Shown: positions 70 through 315 of the stretch, piece after piece
Layout: every line of letters begins with the position of its first letter
How positions within the stretch are numbered: position 1 is the stretch's first letter
Assembly: GCA_947571515.1 (NCBI GenBank)
Contig: CANOYI010000001.1
Location: 1-44,098 of the forward strand
Source: an uncultured Clostridium sp.
Lineage (GTDB): Bacteria > Bacillota > Clostridia > TANB77 > CAG-508
Direction of reading: 5' to 3'
Length of the DNA stretch: 44,098 bases
The notes under the pieces: generated by a model
What the model was told of the DNA's origin: nothing
The model's database searches: none
Seen by the model: the letters and a program-made list of their open reading frames with translations, nothing else
Made by a program: the position numbers and the translations under genes

Positions 70-98
70 TTGACATATCATAAAATATATAGTATACT
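70..98 (+). promoter_or_regulatory. sigma-70-type promoter driving a short RNA convergent with the small minus-strand ORF
   Basis: TTGACA (70-75), 17-nt spacer, TATACT (93-98). No protein-coding ORF lies between it and the terminator at 149-180. Confidence 0.5.
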
Positions 99-104
99 AT
101 AAAC

Positions 105-180
105 AGCTTAAGCAAGATCTAGAATGTTCTTCATGTAAATCAATAAAAATACAGGGAATTCGCTCTTCCCTGTATTTTCA
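105..180 (+). ncRNA. candidate ~75-nt small RNA (antitoxin-like, RNA II-like)
   Basis: Bounded by the promoter at 70-98 and the hairpin terminator at 149-175. Segment 115-142 is an imperfect direct repeat of 236-264, so it is complementary to the start region of the minus-strand mRNA. Confidence 0.4.
149..180. terminator. bidirectional intrinsic terminator
   Basis: 10-bp stem ATACAGGGAA / TTCCCTGTAT (149-158 / 166-175) with a 7-nt loop. T-run follows on the plus strand; TTTTTATT follows on the minus strand. Confidence 0.7.
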
Positions 181-183
181 TTG

Positions 184-255
184 TTACTCCTTTTCTATGT
201 AATTTAATATTTTAAGTAATAGAATAAGTTCCACTAGATCTAGCATATCCTTCAT
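184..255 (-). CDS. 23-aa hydrophobic/amphipathic peptide MKDMLDLVELILLLKILNYIEKE (candidate type I toxin)
   Basis: Strong RBS AAGGAGGTG 7 nt upstream of the ATG. Own promoter at 287-315. The SD can pair with upstream CACCTT in the 5' leader. Below the ORF-track length cutoff. Confidence 0.4.
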   Translation of the reverse strand: MKDMLDLVELILLLKILNYIEKE

Positions 256-286
256 CCAAAATCACCTCCTTAGTGAAGGTGTCTTT

Positions 287-315
287 ATTATATAACATTT
301 ATTTCGTAATTTCAA
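287..315 (-). promoter_or_regulatory. sigma-70-type promoter for the 23-aa ORF
   Basis: Minus strand reads TTGAAA (315-310), 17-nt spacer, TATAAT (292-287). The -35 overlaps the patatin-like gene stop codon. Confidence 0.55.

Follow-up and report, generated by a model that had tools for sequence, protein, structure and literature searches.

Does a short segment of an uncultured Clostridium sp. encode a type I toxin-antitoxin (TA) module, and, if so, how is it related to the modules already described? The segment spans positions 70 to 315 of the window, i.e., the whole stretch of 44,098 nucleotides (nt) analysed here (contig CANOYI010000001.1 of assembly GCA_947571515.1). Knowledge of type I TA systems comes for the most part from cultured Proteobacteria and Bacilli, and their peptides are shorter than the length limits of gene callers, so that they go unseen in metagenome-assembled genomes. 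An earlier note on this DNA had proposed that the segment has a par/Fst-like type I architecture, in which a convergent small RNA (sRNA) is complementary to the start-codon region of the mRNA for a 23-residue peptide. Our analysis indicates that the segment is probably a chromosomal, type I TA-style module of par architecture with a peptide of an undescribed family. The evidence for a selected sRNA-mRNA pair and for a translated peptide is strong, while the architecture itself would not surprise a specialist.

The layout of the segment agreed with the earlier note in its main elements (Table 1). The two convergent near-consensus promoters were present where it had placed them, and the ~75-nt sRNA that it had drawn toward the open reading frame (ORF) is now predicted to be slightly longer. 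The shared bidirectional terminator, earlier located at 149-175, was found to be a somewhat larger hairpin that is usable on both strands, and the upstream CACCTT was predicted to sequester the Shine-Dalgarno (SD) sequence by forming one arm of a 5'-terminal hairpin, with the AUG of the ORF placed 9 nt after GGAGG. The direct repeat that gives the sRNA its complementarity to the start-codon region was likewise recovered, its limits being now placed at 115-139 and 260-236. The predicted mRNA (281-143) folded with an energy of -39.1 kcal/mol (z = -5.35) with the SD hairpin at its 5' end, weak structure around the AUG and the terminator hairpin, and the predicted sRNA (105-183) folded with an energy of -19.7 kcal/mol (z = -4.2), leaving the 5' ~36 nt essentially unstructured before the terminator hairpin, which is present in the predicted folds of both RNAs. 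An Rfam scan of the sRNA (E<=10) gave no family at threshold, with spurious miRNA and hairpin matches to the terminator only, far below gathering scores.

Terminator-like sites numbered 3 in 1.5 kb against 0.2 expected in the terminator scan. Promoter-like hexamers were not above chance in this DNA of 30% GC (8 against 9.2 expected in the promoter scan), so that the argument for genuine promoters depends on their being conserved across 30 distinct orthologous cassettes. Note that the genomes compared throughout were assembled from metagenomes, that many of them are incomplete and that they are interrelated. The sRNA promoter, the SD hairpin, the ORF and the shared terminator were retained in all 30 cassettes. 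Specifically, of the 30 orthologous loci examined, 29 had the sRNA promoter TTGACA-17-TATACT intact or with one change at most (locus L066 gave no cassette), and the mRNA promoter in aligned orthologues read TTGCAA or TTGTAA, a 17-nt spacer, and TATAAT or TACAAT. The terminator hairpin was found at the same place in every orthologue with a differing stem sequence. In addition, every one of the 14 aligned orthologues retained the SD hairpin, in whose anti-SD (5') arm 11 of 12 changes were wobble-compatible.

Duplex prediction, which the earlier note had suggested as a check, supported the proposed interaction of the two RNAs. The sRNA segment 115-139 was predicted to pair with mRNA 260-236 over 25 nt, of which 20 form Watson-Crick pairs, 3 form G-U pairs and 2 are mismatched, with an energy of -30.6 kcal/mol, while duplexes of shuffled sequences averaged -14.0 +/- 2.9 kcal/mol and none of 500 reached the observed value. 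Note that these energies were computed on the 5' parts of the RNAs; full-length RNAduplex was uninformative, giving huge interior loops and being dominated by the terminator complement. For the analysis of covariation, cassettes were anchored on the AUG and on the complementary CAU of the sRNA, and the sRNA arm and the mRNA initiation region were joined and aligned without gaps. Paired cells of the alignment amounted to 76.5% in a set of 20 distinct sequences and to 80.9% in a set of 13, compared with 41-52% and 39-52%, respectively, when the partners were slid by 1-3 columns. Compensatory change was seen in 20 of 33 pairs (20 sequences) and in 17 of 31 pairs (13 sequences). The covariation score was 0.408 in the larger set against 0.07-0.13 for slid partners, and 0.425 in the smaller set against about 0.06-0.12, and in each set none of 500 shuffles reached the observed score. 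Across the aligned cassettes, the core from +1 to +17 of the mRNA paired almost without exception, and codons 4-8 changed together with their sRNA partners (4-12 double changes per column). The aligned sequences are related, so these counts are not of independent events; the slid controls, however, retain the same relatedness and yet fall far below the observed values. As judged from these sequence comparisons, the intermolecular pairing of sRNA and mRNA is under selection.

The manner in which the two repeat copies differ is informative about the level at which the repeat is kept. Among the cells of the core helix that are not Watson-Crick pairs, 34 of 57 were G-U, whereas roughly a quarter to a third would be estimated if the copies had merely drifted. 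The copies thus diverge preferentially by wobble, which argues for selection at the RNA level and not for DNA homogenisation of the repeat. This is relevant to a reading in which the segment is a sense/antisense pair or a terminator region, with an untranslated ORF and a repeat kept by DNA processes such as gene conversion. The chance-level number of promoter-like hexamers is in keeping with such a reading, and so is the terminator, which the convergent flanking genes would use as well. However, the ORF was conserved in its length (22-25 codons), start context and SD sequence, and the cassette persists in species without the patatin-like gene that flanks it elsewhere.

The coding sequence itself also spoke against an untranslated ORF. 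Orthologous peptides were 22, 23 or 25 residues (aa) long, with the frame and the position of the stop kept, and followed the consensus MK[DE]xxxxLK[LI][IL]L[IL]LK[IL]LxYIEKE, the 25-aa form ending in ..LLILLEIIQYIKKEKK. In 26 distinct coding sequences, single-base differences in codons 9-22, i.e., outside the region of sRNA pairing, numbered 911, 41 and 504 at codon positions 1, 2 and 3, respectively, and 44% of the differences were synonymous compared with 21% expected. The first-position changes were mostly exchanges of Leu for Ile. The near-invariance of second positions and the excess of synonymous differences, about twice the expected share, indicate that the ORF specifies a translated and constrained peptide. 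On the strength of these codon patterns, the peptide sequence is under purifying selection, and we regard an untranslated ORF with a DNA-maintained repeat as extremely improbable.

The composition of the peptide was less simple than its earlier description as hydrophobic. That description holds in so far as Leu, Ile, Val, Met and Tyr make up ~65% of the residues, but charged residues recur at intervals of 5-6 positions, and uncharged hydrophobic runs reach 5 residues at most. Charged Lys or Glu was found at positions 2, 3, 9, 15 and 21-23, and often at 5 or 6. The start M-K-[D/E] is invariant, the C-terminus is EKE, KKEKK or ESD, and the core is interrupted by Lys or Glu at positions 9 and 15. 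Neither the window peptide nor 14 relatives could be assigned to a family in Pfam, NCBIfam or PHROGs, even with permissive thresholds, and an exact look-up of the 22-29-aa peptides found none among 15 billion predicted proteins. Nothing resembling this family of peptide and cassette sequences was found in the literature searches made. The peptide family is undescribed, although the type of system, with its par-style architecture, is well known.

We then asked whether the peptide could nevertheless be a divergent member of the Fst/Ldr toxin superfamily. The locus architecture is identical to that of par, and the N-terminus of the window peptide, MKD-L--LV, resembles over 8 residues that of Fst, which we take to be MKDLMSLV. 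Fst and the peptide also have in common a pair of charged residues at the N-terminus and a charged C-terminus (PMC7472228), although the core between them is broken by charges here. On the other hand, a PXXXG motif in the transmembrane helix is essential for the toxicity of Fst and Lpt (PMC7472228), and this motif was absent from all 26 distinct peptides, none of which has Pro or Gly at any position, as the earlier note had remarked of the Fst core in the window peptide. No Pfam or NCBIfam model was matched at E<=10 by the window peptide or by 14 relatives, and the models scanned should include those of Fst. Comparison by hhalign with our assumed Fst sequence gave a probability of 6%, with an alignment confined to the first 8 residues (MKDxxxLV). 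Furthermore, RNA pairing and the AUGAAGGA context impose constraints of their own on codons 1-8, and for that reason N-terminal similarity to Fst is weak evidence of homology. The earlier note had called the homology unproven, a caution that these results bear out, and we consider membership of the Fst/Ldr superfamily very unlikely.

The distribution of the cassette was examined next. A profile of the peptide (alignment A3) gave a single match each in 34 of the 337 other species that the genus comprised in this search and, among high-quality genomes, in 20 of 200 when the genome of the window is counted. The same profile, by which known carriers score E = 1e-8 to 1e-11, gave no match in 285 genomes from 49 other genera of the same family. 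A scan of the genomes of 185,579 species for an exact pattern (SD hairpin and AUGAARGA) recovered 20 loci, all in uncultured gut Clostridia whose genomes were assembled from chicken, mouse and human gut samples, and blastn in 40 relatives detected full-length orthologues in two congeners. The site was nearly always constant: the cassette adjoins the 3' end of a ~1,450-aa gene whose N-terminus is activase-like, and its other neighbour is a convergent gene for a patatin-like phospholipase, which is followed by a DnaJ-domain gene. In the window, the patatin-like gene is upstream and its stop codon overlaps the peptide-mRNA promoter. In five species the patatin-like gene was missing while the cassette was still there. 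In one congener that lacks the cassette (G093), a 200-bp spacer with no more than a terminator lies between the same two convergent genes, indicating that the cassette is a discrete unit that is either present or absent. No match to the cassette was found in the phage, plasmid and IMG/VR collections.

Further copies in the same genome were sought as well, as the earlier note had suggested. About ten par-style cassettes with three peptide types were recovered from the assembly (2.12 Mb in 227 contigs, 29.6% GC, 88.5% complete). Window positions 70-117, which comprise the sRNA promoter and the first ~20 transcribed bases, recurred on contigs C43, C64, C95 and C165. At these sites a conserved TTGACATAT..TAGTATACT promoter precedes a short RNA with its own terminator, and a small ORF is convergent with it; examples of the ORFs at sites of this type are MSSYELIWRLIVLLLLSNDNSEDSQKTQD, MSSFDLIWRLIVLLLARDNKKSNDQKTED and MNNADLVWRLVELLLQKEKD.. 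(43 aa). A genome-wide screen for small SD-preceded ORFs with a downstream repeat of the initiation region added cassettes on C63 and C127 and a tandem pair of 22-aa ORFs on C2, MNNFLKLLKLYLIYLIVKHLSD and MKNLQKLLKLYLIYLIVKHLSE. In the six cassettes with MSSFDLIWRLIVLLL-type peptides (Table 1), the sRNA and mRNA terminators are separate and stand back-to-back, and the sRNA promoter of the window was matched almost base for base in four of the six.

The 5' arm of each sister sRNA repeats the start-codon region of its own locus, and the sequence of the repeat is locus-specific. Predicted pairing was cognate-specific among five cassettes of the genome: a 5 x 5 matrix of duplexes was diagonal, with energies of -24.7 to -33.0 kcal/mol for cognate and -7 to -18 kcal/mol for non-cognate combinations; the sole exception was the closely related pair C95 and C165 (-21.5 to -22.7 kcal/mol). 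An integrase or mobile-element neighbourhood is the usual setting for addiction modules. The C64 cassette is just downstream of a tyrosine integrase gene and the C165 cassette is ~1 kb from one, whereas the window cassette has no such neighbour. The peptides of the window family did not align with the integrase-linked type (hhalign 2.6%), and the tandem peptides on C2 aligned with them weakly (hhalign 64% over 18 columns). The tandem cassettes share with the window cassette the architecture, a peptide size within 21-23 aa and a related sRNA promoter, and differ from it in peptide family and site. The 43-aa peptide type was represented by 171 clusters in public metagenome proteins, which are unnamed and without a Pfam domain.

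Table 1. Elements of the cassette at window positions 70 to 315, and sister cassettes on other contigs of the genome.
Feature	Position	Strand	Basis or remark
sRNA promoter TTGACA-17-TATACT	70..98	+	11/12 consensus positions (promoter scan)
Peptide-mRNA promoter TTGAAA-17-TATAAT	315-287	-	11/12 consensus positions (promoter scan)
Predicted sRNA, antitoxin candidate, ~79 nt	105..183	+	ends inferred from promoter and terminator
Predicted peptide mRNA, ~140 nt	141..281	-	ends predicted from consensus elements
sRNA target-recognition segment (one direct-repeat copy)	115..139	+	pairs with mRNA 260-236
Predicted sRNA binding site on mRNA (second direct-repeat copy)	236..260	-	-5 to +19 around AUG
Shared bidirectional intrinsic terminator	146..178	both	13-pair stem, A-run before, T-run after
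23-codon ORF MKDMLDLVELILLLKILNYIEKE and stop, toxin candidate	184..255	-	ORF list
5'-terminal SD-sequestering hairpin CACCUUC-ACUAA-GGAGGUG	263..281	-	7 pairs, -8.3 kcal/mol; GGAGG at 269-265
Six sister par-like cassettes	C43:730-1060, C64:721-1030, C95:6977-7400, C165:2600-3009, C63:~9900-10200, C127:~2700-3000		MSSFDLIWRLIVLLL-type peptides, 27-43 aa

Several of these observations weigh against a TA module and need to be considered together. The cassette is single-copy, sits at the same chromosomal place across species and is absent from the phage, plasmid and IMG/VR collections, and a fixed, single-copy and non-mobile locus is as compatible with a domesticated regulatory peptide as with an addiction module. 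Given the short uncharged runs and a low helical hydrophobic moment (0.02-0.19), the peptide conforms neither to a typical transmembrane segment nor to a typical amphipathic helix. In addition, Lys is found at position 9 in 24 of 26 relatives, whereas the window peptide has Glu there; its net charge is -2, and it may be an attenuated version. Finally, no separate 5' upstream helix of the par RNA I type was seen in the predicted mRNA fold, in which the 5' end lies within the SD hairpin, the start site being a predicted one. An amphipathic helix in the style of delta-lysin or the phenol-soluble modulins was also considered as a candidate for the peptide and was rejected on the basis of the low hydrophobic moment.

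Some of these observations suit an antisense-gated but non-toxic micro-protein, that is, a vertically inherited chromosomal peptide of regulatory or structural function that is held off by the sRNA. In favour of such a peptide are the single copy at the conserved site between the activase-like gene and the patatin and DnaJ genes in nearly all carriers, the lack of a link to phages, plasmids or viral contigs in the collections searched, the lack of a hydrophobic run of transmembrane length and the purifying selection on the peptide sequence. However, a strong convergent sRNA promoter, sequestration of the SD sequence and occlusion of the start codon are together the set of devices that silences toxic peptides, and chromosomal par homologues at fixed sites are known (PMC7472228). 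The sRNA promoter is also common to paralogous cassettes beside mobile-element integrases. On balance we judge a non-toxic micro-protein to be a rather unlikely explanation, and continue to favour a type I TA-style module.

In the scheme that we infer for such a module, which extends to transcription, transcript ends, relative RNA stabilities, toxicity and biological role, the minus-strand promoter would direct an mRNA of ~140 nt whose 5'-end hairpin buries the SD sequence and so slows translation. By analogy with 5' stem-loops in Firmicutes, the hairpin probably also stabilises the mRNA or protects its 5' end. The product of the mRNA would be a 23-residue, Leu/Ile-rich peptide with charged ends. 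The convergent promoter would direct an abundant sRNA of ~79 nt, with an open 5' arm complementary to positions -5 to +19 of the mRNA and a 3' end that is the complement of the mRNA terminator hairpin. Binding of the sRNA would cover the AUG and the first six codons and thereby block ribosome loading. As in par, pairing may start at the complementary terminator stem-loops, and the resulting duplex may be a target of RNase III. On depletion of the sRNA the peptide would be made and the cell harmed or arrested, presumably at the membrane, as with known toxins of this class.

The sRNA promoter has further features that are shared between loci. In the window (86-101), C43 and C64, the -10 element lies inside a perfect palindrome, which is ATATAGTATACTATAT in C43 and C64 and has the core TAGTATACTA in the window. 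Conservation of the promoter spacer extends across cassettes with unrelated peptides. The palindrome is weaker in the 25-aa subgroup. The palindrome could be the operator of a common regulator, or could reflect promoter exchange between cassettes. As a universal operator it was set aside as speculation, since it is perfect only in the 23-aa subgroup and the integrase-linked cassettes. In addition, the sRNA start (window 105-113) is a self-complementary AGCUUAAGC, with AACUUAAGUU in the integrase-linked cassettes; a start of the AGCUUAAGC type was common to the window and loci L025 and L035 and absent from most orthologues.

A promoter of which the spacer and the palindromic TAGTATACTA over the -10 element are near-identical across three unrelated peptide families in a 2.1-Mb genome is one from which co-switching by one regulator could follow. 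This leads to a bolder reading, in which the 22-25-residue peptides are a new class of antisense-gated micro-proteins at a fixed site, not membrane killers, and about ten cassettes, chromosomal and integrative, are switched together by one DNA-binding regulator as a peptide-release network. We consider this reading improbable. A further match of the repeat screen was observed at C7:21241-21340, where a 23-aa ORF, MIEKILKIMLLVSLIICFLTKKI, is flanked by inverted copies of AAAATCATGATTTT in an architecture unlike that of the others; it is possibly another small antisense-controlled peptide gene.

One observation concerns the neighbouring gene and is separate from the cassette. The patatin-like gene (312-1185, minus strand) is divided into two frames at window positions 1030-1065, being split at the catalytic G-T-S-x-G motif by an extra C (..GGA GGA ACC TCT TCT C GGA AGT...). 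Frame 0 reads a CGG codon at this point and soon meets a stop, whereas a one-base skip restores GGTSS-GSIVACLYAMGF and the conserved 251-aa continuation. A TCN-CGG-N site was found in six species (orthologous sites L039, L040, L047, L048 and L049) with synonymous differences around it, and nine other species have an uninterrupted TCA GGA AGT. CGG is the rarest Arg codon in this genome (0.5 per 1000). A check for a tRNA-Arg(CCG) drew on the 27 tRNAs recovered from the incomplete assembly. From its sequence, the site looks like a conserved +1 frameshift site.

Whatever the peptide does, the window family offers a clean natural covariation set for sRNA-mRNA recognition, with about 30 distinct cognate pairs. 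If the peptide is toxic, the family would widen the sequence rules for its class, as the peptide lacks the PXXXG motif, and would supply orthogonal RNA-controlled kill switches for the genetics of Clostridia. If it is non-toxic, TA-style wiring would have been reused for a chromosomal micro-protein.

Lastly, we compared the cassette with type I systems that have been described. The C. difficile type I TA modules, exemplified by CD2517.1/RCd8, likewise belong to the class Clostridia, are transcribed convergently and encode a small protein whose C-terminus is charged (PMC5961336). Their toxins, however, are 50-53 aa long with a predicted N-terminal transmembrane domain, their cis-antisense antitoxins overlap the mRNA by at least 131 nt, whereas here the overlap is the terminator only and pairing comes from the repeat, and those modules are linked to CRISPR arrays and prophages (PMC5961336). 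SprA1/SprA1AS of S. aureus, an Fst-related system, resembles the cassette in that antisense RNA and mRNA overlap at the 3' end of the latter only and that the antisense RNA acts on the SD/start region by a non-overlapping 5' domain (PMC7472228; PMC8594479). Its toxin PepA1, however, is a membrane peptide of 30 aa from the Fst family, to which the peptide described here shows no sequence relationship. More generally, within the families Fst/RNAII and SprA1 of T1TAdb the antisense RNA is located 3' of the mRNA without overlapping the ORF, and the interaction takes place outside the overlap (PMC8594479). The layout of the window cassette agrees with this description.

The closest counterpart was par of pAD1 from E. 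faecalis (RNA I/Fst and RNA II). Both loci have convergent promoters with one shared bidirectional terminator, an antisense RNA 3' of the ORF without overlap, direct repeats at the toxin initiation region, a 5' SD stem-loop, and a small peptide with K-D at the N-terminus and a charged C-terminus. They differ in that the peptide is 22-25 aa long here compared with 33 aa, lacks PXXXG and any Pro or Gly, and has a core broken by charges; in that one continuous repeat of ~25 nt across the AUG takes the place of the DRa/DRb pair; and in that the predicted sRNA is ~79 nt long compared with ~40 nt. The U-turn (YUNR) motif in the terminator loop, which starts the kissing complex, is itself not present in all par homologues (PMC7472228). 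Four features are given as conserved in par loci: promoters that converge, a terminator that works in both directions, direct repeats spanning the region of toxin initiation, and an SD-sequestering 5' stem-loop (PMC7472228). All four are present in the window cassette and conserved in its orthologues, and the pairing covaries, in agreement with the par/Fst-like type I architecture first proposed for this locus.

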